DNA of 25,199 nt, taken from contig CBDDTI010000098.1 in assembly GCA_965233585.1 (NCBI GenBank), positions 1 to 25,199 of the forward strand, written 5' to 3'. Within the stretch, counting starts at the first letter, position 1, and each line of letters starts with the position of its first letter. Both the position numbers and the translations under genes were made by a program. Positions 3,598 through 20,409 of this stretch are shown here, in pieces. The notes beneath the pieces were generated by a model, which did not search any database, was not told the origin of the DNA, and worked only from the letters and a program-made list of their open reading frames with translations. The stretch comes from a bacterium. Lineage in GTDB: Bacteria > SAR324 > NAC60-12.

Positions 3598-4284
3598 TTA
3601 AATGGAGGTATTATATGCTCTCATGGGCCGTTCGTCGGGGAAAATATGACTCCTCAACCTGACTAGATCGTTCTGTCGCTGATGAAAATCTAGCAAAATG
3701 TATCCGTATGGCTTTTCCTTGGTTGCCGTCCGATACGCTTCATTTAACAAGTGCCCGTTCCCGGGAAACACTTGTTTTGCAAGATGAGATACGGCGCTTT
3801 TATCTCTGGGGTTGTTAAATAAAATCATGTATTGCGAGTTGATGCTGAGCGTTCTGAGCTCGCTTTTGGCGCCAAACAAGCTCTGACATAAGAACACGGT
3901 AAAACAGTTGTAATGGTGTGTCAGAACCGTGAAAAAATGCTTCAACACCTGCCCGACTTCGTCTAAGTAATCATCAAATACCACTATTTTGGGTAGATTT
4001 TTCGGGAACATCTCCAGTATGTCCTTCATTTCCTCAACGGAGTTCGGCACGGATGCGAATTTATAAAAGGATCTATCCTCCTGGTTTGCATTCATCCGTC
4101 TCTCCATCTCATCGTACGCTTGCTGAGACTCTTTGAAAAATAGTAGCATGCATCGAGGCGTGGGTGAGAAGAACACGTCTTTGTCTTTGACCAATTTTTT
4201 CAACCATGATGTTTTTCCGCAAGAGGTTGGACCTACCACCATCAAGTTCGAGGGAATATTGAAACGCGTATCGAATCCTGACAT
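3598..4284 (-). CDS. A32/FtsK-like genome packaging ATPase
   Basis: Walker A GPTSCGKT, Walker B IVVFDD, then RTLSINSQYMILFNNPRD and KPYGYILLD; first ATG at 4284 (ORF track starts at TTG 4305). Confidence 0.93.
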   Translation of the reverse strand: MSGFDTRFNIPSNLMVVGPTSCGKTSWLKKLVKDKDVFFSPTPRCMLLFFKESQQAYDEMERRMNANQEDRSFYKFASVPNSVEEMKDILEMFPKNLPKIVVFDDYLDEVGQVLKHFFTVLTHHYNCFTVFLCQSLFGAKSELRTLSINSQYMILFNNPRDKSAVSHLAKQVFPGNGHLLNEAYRTATKEKPYGYILLDFHQRQNDLVRLRSHIFPDERPMRAYNTSI

Positions 4285-4314
4285 TGCATTAATTTTTTTC
4301 CCCAACTACGAGAT

Positions 4315-7300
4315 TTACTGTATTTTCTTACATGGATGTAAATGACATTTTTTAATTTGACTACTTCCCAAAGCTAACGTGCACTTTCCACAAGGCAGCA
4401 CATATCGCTTCGAGTCCATGGCTGAGAGAGCAATTTTCCGTTGGTAAGTGGTGCCAATCCGATGGTTTTTTGACTTTAAATGGTTGAAAGATTTATATAT
4501 CAAACTTGCACTATTCAAGCATTCCTCGTAATCGGCAAAGGACAATTGATTATTGATGCTGCTCTTTTTGAGGCCTTTGCAAATTTTCTTGGTCGAAATT
4601 TTTTTTGTTTTTAAATTTTTGACTGTCATACTATAACATTTCGGTCTCAGTCCAATAAATTCCGTAATTGCGGCTTTTCCTTTCATTTCATCTTTAAAGT
4701 AAAACAGGTGGTTGGCTCTGCTGTTGTCGTACAATTCGTGATCATTTTCGTATTTTGAAAAATCAAACATGTGCTCAATTGACTTTAATTGTTCTATCAA
4801 ATTGTCACATTTGACACTAAATAAAAAGGAGTCTGTGTCTGAGAAACATAATTTTAAATTTTTCCGACCGAAATGCTCTTTAAACTTGTCGTAGGATTGA
4901 TACATAAAAAGTTTGCTCAATTCCAAAATGGCAAATCCAACAGCTAACGGTTTTTTCATTTCAATCGAGTTGGGCTTCTTCATGACTGCTACCAGATCCT
5001 GGTTGATGATTTTAAAATTGGATACGTGCTGACCTATGCATGCTTTTCTTAAACTTTTCTCATCATCACACAAAACAATCTCGATGTAATTTCTGGCGTT
5101 TTCTGAAAAAAAGAGGAGAAAATCATTAAGTCAACATCTTTACAAAAATCATGCAACTTTCTTTTTCATGTTTACCTATGAATTTGCCGAAGGTCGCATT
5201 TGCAAAAAGTTTAAACAGTCGCAATTCGAAATCTGTCTTCGCCTCCGACCTCAATTTTGTAATCTTGGTGATAAAGTTCTTTAGAAAATCCTTCTGGGTG
5301 AATTTGATCGCTCTCCTGATCCTGATCAGCTCGAGTCCACGTTCGAGATAATATTTGAGGTTATCCAACAGAACCACATATTTGCGTCTCGTGTAAAATG
5401 TGGCCAGCAATTTCCTTGAAGAATATCTACGCTTCTTGTAATCTCGATAAGCGTGCTTTCTCAAAAGTTTCCTGTTGAATGGCGATAGATCCTCAAAGCC
5501 TACTGTACCGGTGTACGGGGCCAGAGGAAATTGATCATCCCTTTTGTGATACTTTGCTGGGTAGAAAAGGTCCACCTCGAAAGCGTAGCCAGTCTCGCTC
5601 TGTGTTGGTAAATTTAAAATATCTTTGGCAGACCATGTTCTCAGCTCGTCCTTCTCGATCCACTCGAAATCTCCTACGGGTAATTTAAATGTTTCCATGC
5701 TACCGTAGAGATTATTGGCTGTAAAGAACGGAGGGAAAAAATTAAACTCTGTTTAATTGATTTAGTCCCATAGTTTGTCTTGAAGGAGGAAAATGGAAAA
5801 AAAAAAAAATTTACCATCAACATAGAGTAAATGATCGCCTGGAGATTTCGGATCGTCGCTTCCCCTCGCATGTCTTGTGGCAATAAAACTTTGCCCGCCT
5901 CTTACACCTTTGGTGAAGAACTGTTCCATTTCAGGCTGATCAAACAAATCTAGAGAGCCGGGCGGTTTGCTGTCAAGACGTTTCTCGCTACTCCCTCTCT
6001 CATCCTCGTAAAACATCCGGAGCATAACATCGAACGATAAGCCCGGTATTCCTGTAATTAATTTTCCAAGAGAAAAAAGGATGATTTGGGAATAAGGAAT
6101 TTTTTTTTTTGCACTTCGGAAGAGAAATACTCACCCAGATAATAAACAGGATCCAGCTTAAAGTGTTGAATGACCATTTCTCTGTACCTAGTGAAAATTT
6201 CAGCCAGCAAAATGACGTCTAAGGCGCAATACAAGTTCATGTAATCCTCCATTGTTTTACAGCCGAAAAATTTGAACACATCTTTCCCGTGTTTGTGGTC
6301 TTCAGCGGAGATATGAGTCTCATTTAACCTCGAATAAAATGCCTCTCTTGAAGGAAACTCGCTCACTTTCAACGACTCATATGATGTAAAATGCTCATAG
6401 GCATACACTCCTTTCCTTTTTAAAAGTTTCAATCCGCGAGATTTTTTCCTCAATGGTAATTTGACATACGGCTGGAACTGGCGGAGGATGGGAAAGGTGA
6501 ATGATTTATCCTGACATAAATCTGTCATTAACGAGTCGAGACTGGACGATATGTGCTCCAAAGAGTCTCTGATTTGAAAACGGCCTATGGTGACAGTGCG
6601 ATATTTTTCCTGGTTTCTAGCCATTACTCGTGTAGCGCGCCCCATTTTTTCTATTATCAGATGAATGTCGTATCTAAAAAAGAAAAAAAATCACACATCA
6701 ATTAACACCTTTTTTCCATTCTCCATTCGAAAAAGTATTCTTCCTGCTAAAATTCTTACCCCTGACCATTGTGGAAATAAATGGGAGTTAGATACGGCCC
6801 TTGTCGATGTAGGTTGCAAATAGCATGAGCAGCTTGAATGTTTCCTCCCGACACGTGATCGTGATCCACCACTTTCCTGTACAAACGCGAATGATCATCG
6901 AATTTTTTCTCGCAAATGTGGCAATGGGTAGCTTCTCGGTATTTTCGCCATTGCACGTTTGAAGCCTTGATTTGACCAGTGCTCCGGAAGCGTTGTTTCC
7001 TATTGTTGACTATACTTTCATAACCGCTTAATTTCGATAAAAACACTTCGACAGCATCGTCACCGCTGTAGGTCTCTTGGTAAAAAACGTCACTGTCAGA
7101 ATCTACAAAACAAATGGAAAAGCCACATGCTTTGTGTTTGTTCAACACTTGGCTTGTAGATTTTTCACAGTCACATTTTAATGAGTTTTTGTTGCATTTC
7201 CTGCATACTTTTTCTTTTTGCCTCGAGTCTTCTTCCATGTAGCACTCGAAATCTGCAAATCCAACGACAGGAGCTTTGAAGCCATTTCTTTGTTTGGAAA

Positions 7301-8920
7301 AATTTAAAACGCTTCCCTTGGGAGGGTACACCACTGTTTGTTTATCTTGCTGACATATTTCTTGATGCGAATTTTTCTTCTCTTTAGGGTATTGGTATTG
7401 TCATCTAGCGAGGATGATTTTTTCCCTCTGAGGGTAAAATTTACCCAGAGGAAACAGTTTTGAATGGGTGATTTATTTTCGAGTCGAGCCTCAATTTCCC
7501 TCAAAATGAAAGTGGCCTGCCCTTGCAACATCTCCCAAAACTAGCAAGACTACCCTTCACAATTACCCCAGAGGGTAAAAATTACCCCCACTAGATGACA
7601 ATACCCTTAGAAACAAAATTCATCAGACACACTTCACAATAGTAATGATTGAGTGGATAAGGAGCTTGCTTCAGGCTTTGTTTTCGTCCATTTAAAAAGC
7701 CCCTAATGTTTTTGATGGTAAAAAAATGATGCTCATGGTTCAAACCGTTCAAAGATGAAGACATCTGCGAATGGAACCTTGTCACACCTGCTTGGCCTTG
7801 GCAAGATAAAAGTTCACGGTCACTTTTAATTAACAAAACATTTAAAACATTTTTATATTTTTTCTGTCTCCCTCTTATGTTTGAAAAAGTGTCCAATACA
7901 CAAATTTCACTCTCACTTTCGAAGAACACTCGAATTGTCAGCGGAAGGTGATTGTTTCTTTTGACAAACTTGTTAATCTGCTTAAAATTTAAAGGGAATT
8001 TAATGCCACTCAAATTAAACTTTCTAATGTACTTGTCTGGGAAGTGGTCACAGTGCTTGATGCTGACAGTGGCTGGCCATAAATGTCTTATTACACAATA
8101 CAAGAAATTCTTCTCATCATATGTGGTTTGCCAATGCACACTCTTGCACTTCAACAAGTACTTAGGCACAATGACAGAGTTAGAGTTCATATTTTTTTCT
8201 TGGGAGGTGCTCCTTTTTCTCCTCTAATTTCTCATCAACTCTCTCTGTCTCTCGGTCGGCTTTCAATCTTCACGTTGAACCGGGCTTGGTTGCAACAAAA
8301 CAAACATCATAGAGTAAGATGTCACAAGCCTCAAGATTTTCAAAACGCCAACCTGACCCGCGTGTCAAAAGATCCTCTTCCCTGGCCAAGGCACCTTGCA
8401 ACAATCGACTGATTTTTCTCTGGATACGCCTATCTCCTTCTAGTTCATTGAACACCAATCCTTTGCTGCGAAGGCTAAAAGTGTCGTTATCTGAGCTCTT
8501 GACTGGGCCTCCCTCTGATGATAAGTCAGAAATTTCGTAGCTGGCAGATATGACTATGCTGGCACGGAAAACGGTTCGTGTCATCAATTCCGTTTTTATC
8601 AGGTTGAAAATTTCTTTCAGAGATTTTTTTGAGTTGCAAAAATCAGCTAATGTCTGTTTTTCCGATGACAGGTCCTTTGTAAAAATGCAAACTCGATCAT
8701 TGATAGCTGATTTTTTTCGAAACACTAAAAGATCCTCATGTTCAGTTGACACGTGAAACCTTAAATCTTTTCTTTTGCTAAAGCCATCAGAGCAAAAGGA
8801 GCAAAAAAATCTCTGTTTACTTGAGCTTGTGGTGCTTTCACTGTGTTGATGAGATAATAAATGCCTGTCCAGGGCTCTTTTTCTTGAAAAGGAAATGTTG
8901 CACAAATGACATTTCTTCAT
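4315..8920 (-). CDS. polB: Protein-primed family B DNA polymerase, spliced. Segments: 8920-~8306, ~8223-7605, 7381-6760, 6673-6135, 6051-5815, 5718-5176, 5102-4315
   Basis: N-terminal two C2H2 fingers and GSGW; ExoI FADFEC; CHIC...DHDH...H.ICN Zn insert; joins rebuild HNGQG|YDIH (ExoII), YYL|GIPGLSFD, YVD|ANNLYG (motif A), KLFANATFGKFI|EN (motif B); FSDTDS (motif C). The junction at 8224-8305 is uncertain. Confidence 0.93.
5103..5175 (-). other. Spliceosomal intron in polB (73 bp)
   Basis: G|GTAAAC...TTTTTTCAG|; join gives FGKFIENARNY in frame. Confidence 0.9.
5719..5814 (-). other. Spliceosomal intron in polB (96 bp)
   Basis: G|GTAAAT...CTTTACAG|; join rebuilds catalytic YVDANNLYG. Confidence 0.93.
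6052..6134 (-). other. Spliceosomal intron in polB (83 bp)
   Basis: G|GTGAGT...TAATTACAG|; join gives DPVYYLGIPGLSFDVML. Confidence 0.92.
6674..6759 (-). other. Spliceosomal intron in polB (86 bp)
   Basis: GG|GTAAGA...T-rich tract TTAG|; join rebuilds ExoII FHNGQGYDIHLI. Confidence 0.93.
7387..7606. mobile_element. 220-bp MITE (PIF/Harbinger-Tourist-like) inserted in polB
   Basis: TTA duplicated at 7384-7386 and 7607-7609; TIRs GGGTATTG(GTATTG)TCATCTAG / CTAGATGACAATACCC; removal restores CEVC-x12-HQEIC. Confidence 0.88.
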
Positions 8921-9147: not shown

Positions 9148-10087
9148 TCAGCCTGATCCTGTACTTCCAGAGTTGTTTGACCCGTTACCAGGCTGTTGAT
9201 AAACTGAAGGCATAGGAACGTCTACGCCGTGCATAATGTTGTTGGCCAGAGCCAAAGCTTGCATCACGGTTAAACAAGTCACCCTGAACGTTTCCCTAGT
9301 CATTTCATCTCTTTTGAACGCAAATTCCAGCGGTGTTAACTGAAACAGATTCCCCATCCACTTAGATGCCCTCTCCAGCAAATAGGAAATTTGCCCATAG
9401 GCTGCCATTTCCTCTTGGCGTGACAGAGGCAATCGTAGCGCGGTTTGCCTGAGCTGTGCTTCTGTTAACACCTCGGGAATGGGAATGTTCCACCTCTCGA
9501 ATCGAACAAGTTTGCCTCCGCTGTAAATCGGCACCACATCGTATTTTTGACAACAACTGAGCTTTGTAAGGCGCCTTTTCACAGCTTCGGACATACCTGC
9601 CTCGAGTCTCAAGTTTCTGATAAATTGACTAGTGCTAGAGCTGGTGATAGGGGTCGGGGGTGCGGACGAGGGTGAAGGCTGTACAAATAAATTGGGGTTT
9701 GGAACTGAGGAAAACCGGAACCGTGATGTCACAGGCCTCCAAGTATTTGGAGCATAGGCCTGTGGCGCGGGTCTGGAGGAAACTGTGGGTGAAGCGGTTT
9801 GAAATAAATTCAGGATTGGGTATAGAGGTAGGGTTGACGGTAGGTGCCAGATTGATTCTTTTGAATCCCGCTGGACCGGCCTCCAAACCCTTGGCTTCGC
9901 TCAAAATCCTCTCACCCTCTTTCTGTGCTTCCTTTCTTGCCCTTTTTGCTCTCTTTGCCAGCACTCTGATTTTCAAAGGATCAGCTGTCTTCTTAATGTA
10001 AAATTCTTTCTTTTGCGACATCTTGCTGTTCATTTTGCTAGGACTTAGTTCTGAAAAGGAGGAGGTGGTGACATAATTATTTTCCAT
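9148..10087 (-). pseudogene. Unknown ~312-aa protein gene, probably one ORF broken by a +1 frameshift near 9811 (track ORFs 9635-10120 and 9148-9732)
   Basis: ATG at 10087 lies just after acceptor CAG|G; the internal repeat TSIPNP/NLFQ..SP vs SSVPNPNLFVQPSP aligns only if G9811 is removed. Confidence 0.55.
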
Positions 10088-13586: not shown

Positions 13587-14106
13587 TTTCTGAAAACCTG
13601 TTGTGTAATTCCATTATTTCATGATGTATGTCAGTTAAAATAAAGTCCTGTGTAACCTTCTGTTTTTACATGTGATGGACAAATACAAAATGAAATATAC
13701 ATCTTTCTCTCATCATCAAAAAAGTTTATTATTGATATTCATTTCTGAAAACCTGTTGTGTAATTCCATTATTTCATGATGTATGTATGTTAAAATAAAT
13801 TCCTGTGTAACCCTCTGTTTTATATGTGATAGACAAATACAAAATGAAATATACATCTTTCTCTCATCATCAAAAAAAGTTTATTATTGATATTCCTTTC
13901 TGAAAACCTGTTGTGTAATTCCATTATTTCAAGATGTATGTATGTTAAAATAAATTCCTAACCCTCTGTTTTATATGTGATAGACAAATACAAAATGAAA
14001 TATACATCTTTCTCTCATCATCAAAAAAGTTTATTATTGATATTCCTTTCTGAAAACCTGTTGTGTAATTCCATTATTTCATGATGTATGTATGTTAAAA
14101 TAAATT
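13587..14106. repeat. ~155-bp tandem repeat, ~3.4 copies
   Basis: TTTCTGAAAACCTGTTGTGTAATTCC starts at 13587, 13742, 13897 and 14047. Confidence 0.93.
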
Positions 14107-14216
14107 TTGTGGCATTTTCATTTTGTAGGGGTAATTTTTACCCTCTGTGGCTAAGCTCTCTTCTCTGGCTCTCAGAACTTTTTTCTTCTGCCTCTCCCAG
14201 TTTATAGCTCATTTTC

Positions 14217-14756
14217 TCATCTTGTAGGGGTAATTTTTACCCTCTGTGGGGTAATTTTTACCCTCTGTAGGGAGCTTTTTTTTTTAGACAGAATTTTTAC
14301 TATATGTGAAACAATTCTCTCATTTCTACGTAGGGTGTTCCCATCAAACAGGGTGTGAAAAAGGGGAGGGTCACAATTAGGGTAAAAATTGACAAATAGG
14401 CAGAATGCTGCAGTGTGCCAGCCGCAAAATAACGAATCAAAATCTTGGATTGGGCGAGAGAGAACGCATTTAATTTTGCCACATCGTATCCATTTTTTTA
14501 GAAAATCAAAAAGGTGGGAATTGTAGATTGGTGGTAATAAAGCAAAACTATCGAAATACCACAATACATTGTCTCGGTCTATGTAGATGGCAATGAAGTG
14601 ACTCCCAGGATGATCAGCTTTGGACAGATTTATAATGGCAGAGCAGCACCTTCCCCACAAATTGAGAGGTACCCTGTCAACAGGGTATACTCCAATAAAA
14701 TTTTCACACTTTGGCAATAAAAAATTTTCTAGAAAATGATTGCTGAGACCAGACAT
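14217..14756 (-). CDS. Adenain-like cysteine (maturation) protease
   Basis: IINLS...PGSHFIA (His), YFDSF (Asp), IQ...LFCG (Gln/Cys). Confidence 0.92.
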   Translation of the reverse strand: MSGLSNHFLENFLLPKCENFIGVYPVDRVPLNLWGRCCSAIINLSKADHPGSHFIAIYIDRDNVLWYFDSFALLPPIYNSHLFDFLKKWIRCGKIKCVLSRPIQDFDSLFCGWHTAAFCLFVNFYPNCDPPLFHTLFDGNTLRRNERIVSHIVKILSKKKSSLQRVKITPQRVKITPTR

Positions 14757-16191: not shown

Positions 16192-17532
16192 CTAATATTT
16201 GAGTTTCGTTACTTGGAGATTTTTATCGATAACAATTCCGGAATTGTAGAAAGCATAAGAGATCAAAGTGTATGAATCATTAAGGGGCCTTGAAAAAGTC
16301 AAATCCAATTCAAGATTTCCGGCAACGGATGGGTGATGGTGGAAAGAATTACATTTGTCAGGGGTCAAATCAAATGCCAGAATTGTATACCCTTTTCTGA
16401 AATTCTTTAGCGTTACCAGGTTTTTGGTGCCTACGTTGCTTTGAAAATGCTCGTATAATTCAACATAATTACCGCTCGCAAAGTCACATTCGATGGGTTT
16501 TGGGAGTAGCGGTCTTCCGTTGTTTTTCAAATTAACACTTGATATATATGCGTGTTCAAAATAGAAATGTCTCGCATCATACTTCCTGGTCAAAAGCTTA
16601 CTCTTTACAAGCACGAAAATAATCTGATTAGGCAGAATTTGATCATTTATATGGTTCGCACTGTAGACGGTCGAATTTTCAGGAATATGGTGATGTATTA
16701 GCCGACTGTCTTTGTAAGGTAGGAAACAAGGTTCCTGAAGTAACTTAGTCTGAAACCGGTTGCGCACGCGTTCAGAGGCAAGCACCTTTCTCATGTGAAG
16801 CTTCAAATCTTTCAAAACAAAATTGAAAGTTTTGTCCGGTACTTCTTGATCAATGCCAAATGTCGGATTAAACCTTGACAATTTCATTTTGATCTCAACG
16901 TTCGGAGGTAAATACTTGTCCGTGTGTAAAATATCGGCCGGTATGGTCGAATTGAAATATACCTTTTTTCCATCCAAAATCATCTCGTGGAACTGAGTCC
17001 TATCTTTGCAATTATGAATTCTTCTAGCCTCCTCTGTGAACATCCAATAGCAATACTCCCTATGATCTTTGTAATAGCCTTCTGCTTTGCCTACATTATT
17101 GATGACATTCCAATGGTAGGAGAGAGAGGAATCAATATAATGCTTGAAGGGATAGGAGACTGGTGCACTTAAATCACAAACTTGTGTTCCGTTCAGATAG
17201 ATTTCAATTTGTGAGAACAAGCAGGCTCCCCAGTGATGCGATAACGTGACATTATCGTTTGATGTTACTGGGGTGCCGTCCTTATCCAGCACAACAAAGT
17301 GCCCCTCTAATCTCGCTTGATTGAGAATAAAAAAACATTCAGGGTCTGGAGGGATTTGAAACTCAACACCTTCAAGACCTTCAACAGGAGAAACACTGCT
17401 GTAGCACACGCTACGACCCTTTATCAGATCGTTTTCAGCTTCGAGAGGAGTGTGAAGATCTAGACTTTTCCCCTTCAACTCGTTGATTTCAACATTTAAT
17501 CCTCCCACGCCTGCGCGCATCAACGATGCCAT
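16192..17532 (-). CDS. Major capsid protein 2 (paralogue of MCP1)
   Basis: Collinear motifs LFSQIEIYLNGTQVCDLS, YPFK, TDKYLPPNVEIKMKL, LKDLKLHMRKVL, FDLTPDKCN; ATG at 17532 or 17520. Confidence 0.86.
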   Translation of the reverse strand: MASLMRAGVGGLNVEINELKGKSLDLHTPLEAENDLIKGRSVCYSSVSPVEGLEGVEFQIPPDPECFFILNQARLEGHFVVLDKDGTPVTSNDNVTLSHHWGACLFSQIEIYLNGTQVCDLSAPVSYPFKHYIDSSLSYHWNVINNVGKAEGYYKDHREYCYWMFTEEARRIHNCKDRTQFHEMILDGKKVYFNSTIPADILHTDKYLPPNVEIKMKLSRFNPTFGIDQEVPDKTFNFVLKDLKLHMRKVLASERVRNRFQTKLLQEPCFLPYKDSRLIHHHIPENSTVYSANHINDQILPNQIIFVLVKSKLLTRKYDARHFYFEHAYISSVNLKNNGRPLLPKPIECDFASGNYVELYEHFQSNVGTKNLVTLKNFRKGYTILAFDLTPDKCNSFHHHPSVAGNLELDLTFSRPLNDSYTLISYAFYNSGIVIDKNLQVTKLKY

Positions 17533-18086
17533 TTTCTCAAGCAAATGACGTGACTATTAGCAATATAAAACTGAGCTGCAAAATTGATCTCCTAGATGAA
17601 ACAACGATCTCCTTAAATAAGGAGGCGGACACAAGATCTCACGGGAATTTTACGGTGGTTAAAAAAAGATATGTCTACATTATTTTCAAAAAGCGGAAAA
17701 ACAAGCAGAGCTACCACGTGAACATCACCAAGGTTCCATCTTCAGCAGAGATAATGTCCTCGATTGACCAATTGAGCCGCATAATAACTAACAACTTTAT
17801 CGTGAAGTCTTATAACATTGAAAATATGACATGTTCTTTTGATGCAGGCTTTAACATTCCACTGATCGAGGTATTTGATCAATTGGAGAAAAAAAGCTTT
17901 GTCAAGAAAGCCCGATTCAACCCGGAAAGATTTCCTGGAATATTTGTGACTTTCGAATTCAACACAATTCTATTGTTTTCATCTGGAAAAATGGTAATAA
18001 TTGGAGCAAACGACATGCAAAGTGTGGAGGATAGCTTAGACAAAATCTTGCACTTTTTGAAACCTTATAAAGCACTGCAAATATAA
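17526..18086 (+). CDS. TATA-binding protein (TBP)-like, 186 aa, core domain only
   Basis: Second repeat IENMTCSFD..F.IPL...FNPERFPGI...TILLFSSGKMVIIGA matches the TBP signature; first repeat (ISNIKLS...YIIFKK...HVNITKV) is degenerate. Confidence 0.9.
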   Translation: MPFSQANDVTISNIKLSCKIDLLDETTISLNKEADTRSHGNFTVVKKRYVYIIFKKRKNKQSYHVNITKVPSSAEIMSSIDQLSRIITNNFIVKSYNIENMTCSFDAGFNIPLIEVFDQLEKKSFVKKARFNPERFPGIFVTFEFNTILLFSSGKMVIIGANDMQSVEDSLDKILHFLKPYKALQI

Positions 18087-18153: not shown

Positions 18154-18903
18154 ATGCCTGCTCCAAATGAGCGGAGCTCCGGCTGTGAGCATCGGCATAC
18201 GGTGGATGAAATATCTTGCGGGGATTTGGTCTGTATAGACTGCGGTCTTGTACTGGATAAAATCTACCTCTACCCTATGAAGGCTAATCGTGCGACCTGG
18301 AGAGAGAGAATGGCATCTGAGTCCTACTACGACAATAATAAAAAAAATGATCGCATTCATGTGCAAAACTGCATAGATATGATTGAACATATGTGCGGTA
18401 AATGTAACATTGACAGCGAAGATGTCAAAGCTTGCATATTGAAGAAATGGCAGGATTTAGGAAAAATATACAGAAAGAATGTTTGTCAGGAGAGTCTGAT
18501 GCTAGTTTGCATGTACATGACGTTAATCGAAATGAAAGTGCCACGCCCGTTGAATCATTTATGCACCCAGACAAACATAGACCCGAAAAATGTGTGGAAC
18601 TATCTCAAAGCCAACAACTCATTTTACAGGCCGAATTTAATGTGCGAATATTTTCTGCATGACATGAACTTACCATACAAAGACATTGAGCAAATAAGAT
18701 CATTGGTCAAAAAGTTTGAATCAAAGTACGTTTTTTCTCAAAAAACCTTGATTGCGTCGAGCGCCTATATCTATTTAAGAAATCGAGACGCAACTGAGAA
18801 AAAGGCAAAGATCAGCATAAGTCAATTGGCAAAACAATTAGGCGTAAGCTCAACGGCCATGTACAGGTGCATTAAGAAAATTGAATCATCTAGCAGAGCA
18901 TGA
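18154..18903 (+). CDS. TFIIB-like transcription initiation factor, 249 aa
   Basis: Zn ribbon CEH...GDLVCIDCGLVL; reader-like TWR; two cyclin-fold-like repeats (ESLMLVCMY...VPRPL; KTLIASSAY...ISISQLAKQLGVS). Confidence 0.87.
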   Translation: MPAPNERSSGCEHRHTVDEISCGDLVCIDCGLVLDKIYLYPMKANRATWRERMASESYYDNNKKNDRIHVQNCIDMIEHMCGKCNIDSEDVKACILKKWQDLGKIYRKNVCQESLMLVCMYMTLIEMKVPRPLNHLCTQTNIDPKNVWNYLKANNSFYRPNLMCEYFLHDMNLPYKDIEQIRSLVKKFESKYVFSQKTLIASSAYIYLRNRDATEKKAKISISQLAKQLGVSSTAMYRCIKKIESSSRA

Positions 18904-19334
18904 ATTTCCACCGAGGTGCGCCTATTCAACAGGGTGCAGGTTTAGGTTCTATCTTCAGTGGGCTTTTTAGAACGCTGGTGCCTGTAGCTAAGACTGCGGC
19001 AAAAACTGTAGGCAAAATTGCGAAAAGCAAAGGAGTCAGGTCAGCAGGAAGATACTTGAAGAAGGAGGCCACTCGAGCAGCTCTTGACTCAGCTTTAGAG
19101 GCGCTGGAGGGGAAAAAAGTCGGCACCGCGGCAAAAAGGAGACTAAAAACTGCCACGAAAAATATTCTGCTAGCAGGCAAGGGAGTTGAAGCTCCTTATG
19201 CAAGGGAGAGAGGCACCAAGAGGAAGAATGTCAAATTCCAAATGGGAAATGCCAAAAGAAGAAGAAAAAAAATAGAACAGAAACCGCTTTTTGACGACGA
19301 CGATGACCACTACGACGAAGACGACGATTACTAA
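18900..19334 (+). CDS. 144-aa basic protein with N-terminal QxGxGLG plus amphipathic helix (Polinton-type putative core protein)
   Basis: IQQGAGLGSIFSGLFRTLVP, Lys/Arg/Ala-rich body, acidic tail. Confidence 0.8.
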   Translation: MNFHRGAPIQQGAGLGSIFSGLFRTLVPVAKTAAKTVGKIAKSKGVRSAGRYLKKEATRAALDSALEALEGKKVGTAAKRRLKTATKNILLAGKGVEAPYARERGTKRKNVKFQMGNAKRRRKKIEQKPLFDDDDDHYDEDDDY

Positions 19335-20409
19335 AGAGGAGTTTATGGATGCTTACGCATCACCAGGAACACCTTTGGCCTTTTCATCGCCTTACCGTGT
19401 TTACAAACATTTCCAGGGGGCCATACCGTTGAAGACTATTAAAAAATGGATGCACGGCTTGGACAGCTACACATTGCACAAACAAGCAAGAGCGCCCAGA
19501 CCGAGAAACCCTACCTACGCCTACAACAAGAGGTATCAGTTTCAAATCGACTTGATCGAACTAGGGCGGTTAGCCGAGGCCAATGATGGGCATCGCTTCT
19601 TGTTAACGGTGATTGACATATTTACCAGATTTGCTTTCGTAGAGCCCCTCAAAAACAAAACAGCACCGGCTTTCTTGGAGGGATTCAAAGCAATCATGTC
19701 AAGAGCTGAGCAATTTCCGCAAAAAATTTTAGCTGACAGAGGTTCCGAGATAAAGAACAAATTGTTCAGAGACTACTGTCGGCAAAATAACGTTCGTCTT
19801 CTGCACAGCGACAACTTTGTGCATGCACCATTCGTGGAAAGATTTAACCGGACGTTAAAAACACTGATGTACAAATACATGACGGCAAAAGAGACGGATA
19901 GATTCATCGACGTGCTGCAACCGTTGGTGAACACCTATAATTTACGTACACATAGGATGATTGGTATGTCACCTGCCCAGGCCGAAAATGAAGAAAACGC
20001 TCATTTGATTAGAAGGAAACAGGAGGAGCGTTATTCGGAAAAATCCAGACGACCACCCAGATTTAAGAAAGGACAGACCGTGAGAGTGAGTAAACTGAAG
20101 GGACAATTTGATAAGGGATATGATGAGCAATTCCTTGAGGAGATTTATAAGATTAAAAGAGTATTCACACGCCTGCCCATTCCCACCTACGAGTTAGAGA
20201 CGTTGGATGGGGATGAGACGATTGAGGGGAATTTTTACGGAAACGAATTAACTTTAACGGAAGTGCCGAAAGTCTTTAAGATTGAAAAGATTCTGAAAAG
20301 GAGAAAGGACAAAACTAGCGGACAAAAGCTGGTTTACGTGAAGTGGAAGGGATATAGAAACCCGAGTTGGATTCCAGAGCGAGATGTGATAAATTTGAAC
20401 CAATCGTGA
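19303..20409 (+). CDS. Retroviral-like (rve) DDE integrase with C-terminal chromodomain
   Basis: FQIDL, LTVIDIFTRFA, ADRGSE, VERFNRTLK; chromo-like FKIEKILKRR...YVKWKGY..PSWIP; ATG at 19303 or 19345. Confidence 0.96.
   Translation: MTTTTKTTITKEEFMDAYASPGTPLAFSSPYRVYKHFQGAIPLKTIKKWMHGLDSYTLHKQARAPRPRNPTYAYNKRYQFQIDLIELGRLAEANDGHRFLLTVIDIFTRFAFVEPLKNKTAPAFLEGFKAIMSRAEQFPQKILADRGSEIKNKLFRDYCRQNNVRLLHSDNFVHAPFVERFNRTLKTLMYKYMTAKETDRFIDVLQPLVNTYNLRTHRMIGMSPAQAENEENAHLIRRKQEERYSEKSRRPPRFKKGQTVRVSKLKGQFDKGYDEQFLEEIYKIKRVFTRLPIPTYELETLDGDETIEGNFYGNELTLTEVPKVFKIEKILKRRKDKTSGQKLVYVKWKGYRNPSWIPERDVINLNQS

Follow-up and report, generated by a model that had tools for sequence, protein, structure and literature searches.

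Tourist-like MITEs of the PIF/Harbinger type, of which mPing is an example, are small, non-coding elements that have terminal inverted repeats (TIRs), are flanked by a 3-bp TTA/TAA duplication and recur between many unlike flanks, and the element analysed here resembles them in all of these respects. A 3-bp duplication of the form TWA is the signature of PIF/Harbinger (Tourist-like) elements, and mPing, like other Tourist-like MITEs, is known to excise precisely. A second group that invites comparison are the introners of Micromonas pusilla (IE1), Aureococcus, dinoflagellates and other families, which, like our element, are TIR-bearing non-autonomous transposons with a 3-bp duplication that sit in coding exons, carry GT within an element end, and restore the reading frame upon removal. 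In Micromonas, as set out in the legend to Fig. 2 of PMC11282704, it is the duplication that supplies the co-opted 3′ AG, so that every insertion becomes an intron, whereas at the locus described below the AG belongs to the flank, outside the duplication, and the splice signals depart from the local intron consensus. Introners are reported mainly from aquatic organisms in passages of the same source (PMC11282704), and introner-bearing genes of viral origin are noted in a passage of PMC12130899. Transposon-in-virus nesting has a further precedent in the MITEs of Pandoravirus salinus which, in the part of PMC4495683 that concerns them, represent a cellular MITE family that colonises a virus-like element, much as is seen here; unlike that case, the target in ours is a Polinton integrated in a chromosome, and the gene interrupted is one for replication.

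The window, as we call the whole stretch of 25,199 nucleotides that was analysed, is a contig (C98) of an assembly filed as prokaryotic, and most of it is a Polinton/Maverick (Table 1) that has polB, a gene for a protein-primed family-B DNA polymerase matching PF03175, together with an rve integrase and long TIRs flanked by GTTATT, a 6-bp duplication established by comparing the left junction in a second contig (C212) with the right junction in the window. The assembly comprises 12.0 Mb in 747 contigs, with completeness 92% and contamination 2%, against 1.6-9.7 Mb for 40 relatives, and polB paralogues of 64-77% nucleotide identity occur on more than 20 of its contigs; from this size and these paralogues we conclude that a prokaryote was binned together with eukaryotic, Polinton-rich DNA, which makes up much of the assembly. 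Many of its contigs are eukaryotic and carry Polintons with introns, Harbinger-type transposases and chromodomain integrases, and marker-gene contamination figures are blind to them.

Table 1. Coordinates of the Polinton, its polB gene and the inserted MITE in the window
Feature	Position	Strand	Remarks
Host Polinton/Maverick	501-23861		~23.4 kb; TIRs ~450 bp, made of sub-repeats
rve integrase with chromodomain	19291-20409	+	PF00665
ATPase	3598-4305	-	weak match
Protein-primed polB	4315-8190	-	start ATG at 8190; Pfam PF03175 matches exon 4
polB exons	8190-6760, 6673-6135, 6051-5815, 5718-5176, 5102-4315	-	first exon holds the MITE
polB intron 1	6674-6759	-	GTAAGA...TTTTTTAG, ends TAG; 86 nt
polB intron 2	6052-6134	-	GTGAGT...TTACAG; 83 nt; phase 1
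polB intron 3	5719-5814	-	GTAAAT...TTTACAG; 96 nt; common to paralogues
polB intron 4	5103-5175	-	GTAAAC...TTTTTCAG, ends CAG; 73 nt
MITE	7387-7606		220 bp; without coding capacity, no frame open through the element
Target-site duplication, left copy	7384-7386		TTA
Target-site duplication, right copy	7607-7609		TTA
Left TIR	7387-7433		GGGTATTG[GTATTG]TCATCTAG...; holds the palindrome GGGTAAAATTTACCC
Right TIR	7566-7606		holds GGGTAAAAATTACCCC
Hypothetical intron proposed earlier	7382-7604	-	GT..AG, 223 nt; arithmetic from sequence, use predicted only

On the plus strand, positions 7380-7610 read ...CTCT/TTA/GGGTATTGGTATTGTCATCTAG...CTAGATGACAATACCC/TTA/GAAAC. The inverted arms of the element (7394-7433 and 7566-7605) are 85% complementary over 40 nt, with an extra GTATTG in the left arm, and its minus-strand RNA is predicted to fold at -90.2 kcal/mol (z = -5.6; none of 200 shuffled sequences folds as well), the TIRs forming an uninterrupted 24-bp helix. 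With its TIRs, its target-site duplication, its short length devoid of a transposase gene and its many copies at different sites, the element is a genuine MITE, and the family is a real mobile repeat. The original prediction, which had called a 220-bp TIR element with a TTA/TAA duplication from this one locus, was right, and the call is strengthened by the multiplicity of copies with unlike flanks.

Evidence for these copies comes from Logan contigs of three runs of one sample (X1, X2 and X4) and of a seawater metagenome from another study (X5). All four sets derive from DNA, because the polB introns are retained in them (one record, X1 record 3, spans 4846-7592 and keeps every intron that it crosses), and they have no bearing on expression or splicing. 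Among the sequencing runs listed for this locus there is none of RNA. Summed contig depth in the bin 7478-7711 reaches 353 (X1), 275 (X2) and 147 (X4), compared with 7-30 in neighbouring bins, which places the right end of the MITE at 15-35 times the neighbouring summed depth in this one sample's DNA contigs. Loose ends accumulate behind 7607 (11 contigs in X1 and 6 in X2) and behind 7609 (7, 8 and 9 contigs in X1, X2 and X4, respectively), and in X1 alone the right end is joined to at least 18 unlike flanks (11 + 7 junction contigs). The consensus of these flanks agrees at only 0.47-0.56, so that the flanks of the MITE copies do differ from one another, and, judged by majority letters only, they diverge after T+AA or TTA, that is, after T(A/T)A. 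A commoner subfamily has only the last 44 nt of the MITE in common with it, as indicated by loose ends before 7563, which show a consistent consensus and number 11, 6 and 9 contigs in X1, X2 and X4.

A search of the host genome for further copies, which the original prediction had proposed, thus has a twofold outcome: there are many in the DNA contigs of the sample, but the assembly holds the full MITE at this locus only, on the two contigs C98 and C212, and none of 40 relatives has a copy. Public contig collections were less informative. Scanning with a 16-mer returned 42 single matches in genome contigs of unrelated prokaryotes and 5 in viral contigs, which we read as chance since none of them continues into an extended MITE end; a 23-mer and a two-ended gapped MITE pattern found nothing in metagenome contigs, two further MITE patterns found nothing in viral contigs, and the TIR sequence itself had no usable match in the collections scanned.

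The duplication, TTA at this site and T(A/T)A at the other copies, is of the TWA form expected of PIF/Harbinger transposons. The Harbinger-type transposase domain PF13359 is matched 11 times in the same assembly, among others in stop-free frames of 355-395 aa, and one of these loci has a Myb-like second reading frame, a pairing that again recalls the known PIF/Harbinger systems; in contrast to those, an autonomous partner whose ends match did not come to light, the terminal 12-mer of the MITE being present in none of the six transposase loci examined in an assembly from which the host genome is mostly missing. The MITE is Tourist-like and probably of PIF/Harbinger type.

The gene that it interrupts is otherwise in good order. 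Once 223 nt are subtracted, the five polB exons comprise 1104 codons followed by a stop (3315 nt in total), and they contain no other stop or frameshift, so that the MITE insertion is the only lesion. The exon joins read HNGQG/YDIHL, YYLG/IPGLSF, YVD-A-NNLYG and FGKFI-E-NARN, and among the motifs of the protein we take FADFE to be Exo I, HNGQGYD to be Exo II, and YVDANNLYG to be a further polB motif. An intron occurs at the place of intron 1 in two paralogues of the same assembly (C58 and C47) as well. Intron 2 is missing from both, where YYLGIPGLSF is continuous, and it must have been gained, or else lost, within this Polinton lineage; as a repeat it has no further copy in the assembly except on contig C212. 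Upstream of polB, a C2H2 zinc-finger frame (8270-8920) is a separate gene, because a TAA and then an ATG part the two in paralogue C58.

The insertion site lies in exon 1, within a CxxC-x12-HxxxC knuckle just upstream of FADFE. Entering the MITE, the minus-strand frame reads TCT AAG GGT ATT GTC ATC TAG, the TAG being at 7593-7591; the 223-nt insertion thus shifts the frame and brings a stop five codons in, such that translation of the unspliced gene would end after 195 polB residues and the additional G-I-V-I, before Exo I. Homologues are uninterrupted where the MITE and its TTA duplication sit. In all seven that were aligned, namely five database proteins (59-80% identity, picked from 21 matches) and the paralogues C58 and C47, exactly three residues separate ...CLMxF(x) from KKxxH, and one of them, P0004, reads FWSKEKKNSH at the insertion site. 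These homologues bear out the knuckle spacing and the empty-site protein that had been deduced from the window, and the ancestral uninterrupted state of polB is kept in many paralogues. Among the longer proteins of a 5.8-billion-protein collection, no uninterrupted relative exceeds 80% identity, which means that neither a spliced nor an empty version of this particular polB copy is on record there.

What singles out this insertion is its relation to the reading frame. A stretch of 223 nt on the minus strand is delimited by G7604-T7603 and A7383-G7382, and its removal would leave TCT AAG GAG AAG in place of the TCT AAA GAG AAG of the empty site, both encoding S-K-E-K. The arithmetic, first pointed out in the original prediction, is exact, and the complete frame of 1104 codons is restored along with the four residues. 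Other pairs fare worse. GTTTCT (7614) combined with the AG at 7381-7380 is in frame but deletes four residues, and GTCATC (7599) with the same AG is in frame and adds one; both are poorer donors and both break the x12 spacing. A better-looking donor, GTAATT (7585), and a better-looking acceptor, TAG (7406-7405), come after the stop or out of frame.

Two readings follow. The one that we hold to be likely is that a Tourist-like MITE made an ordinary, disruptive insertion in the polB of a Polinton. A Tourist-like MITE, probably of PIF/Harbinger type, would have inserted at a TTA in polB exon 1 of a Polinton that was itself integrated in a eukaryotic chromosome, in DNA whose contig came to be binned with a prokaryotic assembly. 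Most likely the insertion broke polB and left this Polinton copy dead or dependent on polymerase supplied in trans, and the GT..AG pair would then most likely stem from a chance combination of TIR sequence (GGGT...) with local flank (TAA/AG) and not be a working intron. Against this reading stand the coincidence that it demands and the fact that polB shows no other decay in either contig. By our own estimate, an AG falls right after the duplication in ~1 of 16 cases by chance and the change from A to G is silent in ~1 of 3 frames, from which a protein-neutral GT..AG pair would be expected in some 2-6% of cases for one insertion.

The second reading, that of a nascent, introner-like intron, holds that the spliceosome uses G/GTATTG and TAAAG/ and so produces full-length polB with no more than a silent change from AAA to AAG; we regard it as unlikely. 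In its favour are the exact 223-nt arithmetic with a spacing equal to that of all seven uninterrupted homologues, and the intactness of the rest of polB in both of two contigs that are ~99% identical. The host, moreover, splices short GT-AG introns in this same polB, one of which (intron 2) is lineage-specific. The introner mechanism is documented in the parts of PMC11282704 and PMC12130899 that describe it, and the mainly aquatic distribution given in the former (PMC11282704) has a parallel in the seawater metagenome from which one related contig set comes.

The splice signals, however, do not resemble those in use nearby. A by-eye comparison was made with eight local introns, the four of polB in the window and two each from the paralogues C58 and C47, whose donors are GTAAGA, GTGAGT, GTAAAT, GTAAAC, GTGAGT, GTAATA, GTAAGT and GTAATA, with A at +4 in all eight. 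Every one of their acceptors is YAG, and in seven of the eight a T-rich run adjoins it, the exception being intron 2 of the window, where the run lies ~20 nt further upstream. The candidate donor, AGG/GTATTG, has T at +4, and the candidate acceptor, ACCAATACCCTAAAG/, ends in AAG, with two T in its last twelve bases and hence no adjoining T-rich run. At 223 nt the candidate is also far longer than the four introns of the window (73-96 nt), and in the predicted fold its donor G/GU is buried inside the 24-bp TIR helix, which may well hinder the binding of U1. Thus, unlike those of introners, the candidate signals do not match the introns of the host as far as these eight local examples represent them.

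Nor do the element and its duplication provide both splice sites, as introners do at every insertion. The end of the MITE together with the duplication, ...CAATACCC + TAA, contains no AG; the AG at 7383-7382 belongs to the flank beyond the TTA duplication, so the acceptor is not a property of the MITE family and would be a one-off of this site. At the other copies the majority flanks begin with AA, AT or GA, not with AG. An insertion in a transposon gene can, besides, persist without any help from host splicing. Still, weak splice sites can be usable at a low level, and one form of the proposal would be an intron at birth, in which the MITE happened to meet a site that supplied an AG and is spliced in spite of weak signals, the TIR helix perhaps bringing the ends together; this, too, we consider improbable. 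Were the MITE spliced out, the Polinton would stay replication-competent. All the indirect tests made on the sequence nevertheless point away from an efficient intron, and we infer that the MITE is not spliced, or not efficiently so. The original prediction of an introner-like MITE is consequently upheld as regards the MITE and the exact splice arithmetic, whereas the introner part of it is unsupported, both by the signals and by the position of the AG in the flank; its own caveat, that an AAG acceptor lacking a good pyrimidine tract might mean that the insertion just inactivates polB, turns out to be the better reading, given YAG in eight of eight local introns.

If polB is disrupted, the disruption might be reversible: a MITE that is still mobile could be excised precisely from DNA by a transposase, restoring polB after a temporary silencing. 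Such a cycle, to which we assign a low probability, would accord with an abundant family, with the stop-free Harbinger-type transposase frames of 355-395 aa in the assembly, and with a MITE that is 100% identical in two contigs whose surrounding polB differs by ~1%. That identity, though, amounts to 0 differences over 226 nt where ~2 would be expected, which is not significant, and the six transposase loci examined all lack the terminal 12-mer of the MITE. An empty-site joint is likewise missing, as is any joint at 7382/7604, from the DNA contigs of the four runs X1, X2, X4 and X5, which drop rare variants and in X5 do not include 7010-7945. That the repeat was mis-joined into polB during assembly is highly improbable. 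None of the Logan contigs, it is true, extends over the entire MITE, and the breaks fall in its right TIR (7569-7592). Yet the independent contigs C98 and C212 share the site and its duplication, X1 record 3 crosses the left junction with no differing letter, the right junction is crossed by records 4, 13 and 22, which start at 7569, and a duplication with exact frame arithmetic is unlike a chimera.

Contig C212 carries the identical MITE at the same polB site with the same duplication. Positions 1-500 of the window are 100% identical to it and polB is ~99% identical, and because of this near-identity, above all over the first 500 bases, the two contigs are one locus seen twice, in haplotypes or strains. 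By eye, their polB genes differ by 5 silent changes and by 8 that replace an amino acid (9 nt), small numbers that leave silent changes in 7900-8190 uncounted; one of the replacements, in C212, turns into V a G just before FADFE that is kept in all seven homologues. An integrated copy drifts whether it is spliced or not, and these counts therefore carry no information on splicing. The two contigs also differ at the border of the Polinton, where, compared with position 500/501 of the window, C212 has 436 extra nucleotides (62137-62572) that separate the end of the Polinton from the left flank common to both. The duplicated GTTATT and the initial TGT of the TIR lie in this stretch, all of which is missing from the window, and either a haplotype deletion or an assembly difference could account for the gap.

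As it stands, a disruptive insertion amounts to one transposon nested in another, which is nothing unusual, and implies that this copy of the Polinton is probably non-autonomous. Should a 7605/7381 junction be present in RNA, the locus would instead represent a datable, single-event intron gain from a generic MITE whose family is not specialised as an introner, made in one step within a virus-like element, and would bear on the origin of introners from ordinary transposons. Possibly more important than the insertion are its surroundings: Polintons with introns, each equipped with a TBP-like gene, form a large family that has gone unnoticed in an assembly filed as prokaryotic. In the window, the TBP-like protein of the Polinton is encoded at 17526-18086 (+; PF00352, E = 2.5e-16), next to a frame at 18154-18903 (+) with a weak match to a TFIIB zinc ribbon and an HTH. 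Across the assembly, 41 TBP-domain matches are spread over ~35 contigs, and most of the matching frames are 188-208 aa long; many of them share a contig with a polB paralogue. Judged by title or abstract, none of the papers listed for Polintons together with the TATA-binding protein appears to deal with such a gene.

Other features of these Polintons deserve brief mention. One contig of the seawater metagenome joins 4354 to 7956, skipping 3601 nt and with them nearly all of polB, and could either derive from a related Polinton that has lost polB or be a chimera. The extensive non-coding region at the centre of the Polinton contains four tandem units of ~150-155 bp each, at 13587-14126. Close by, at 14123-14272, are three copies of GGGGTAATTTTTACCCTCTGTGG, nearly equal to the subterminal palindrome GGGTAAAAATTACCCC of the MITE, and GGGTAAAAATTACCCC has 5 matches in the window where 0.01 would be expected. 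The GGGGTAATTTTTACCCTCTGTGG copies could be either remnants of related MITEs or a motif common to the MITE and Polintons, and the occurrence of a TAAAAAT core beside TBP genes encoded by the element is suggestive only. A similar pair of motifs is found at 9680-9770 of another Polinton contig of the same assembly, C328.
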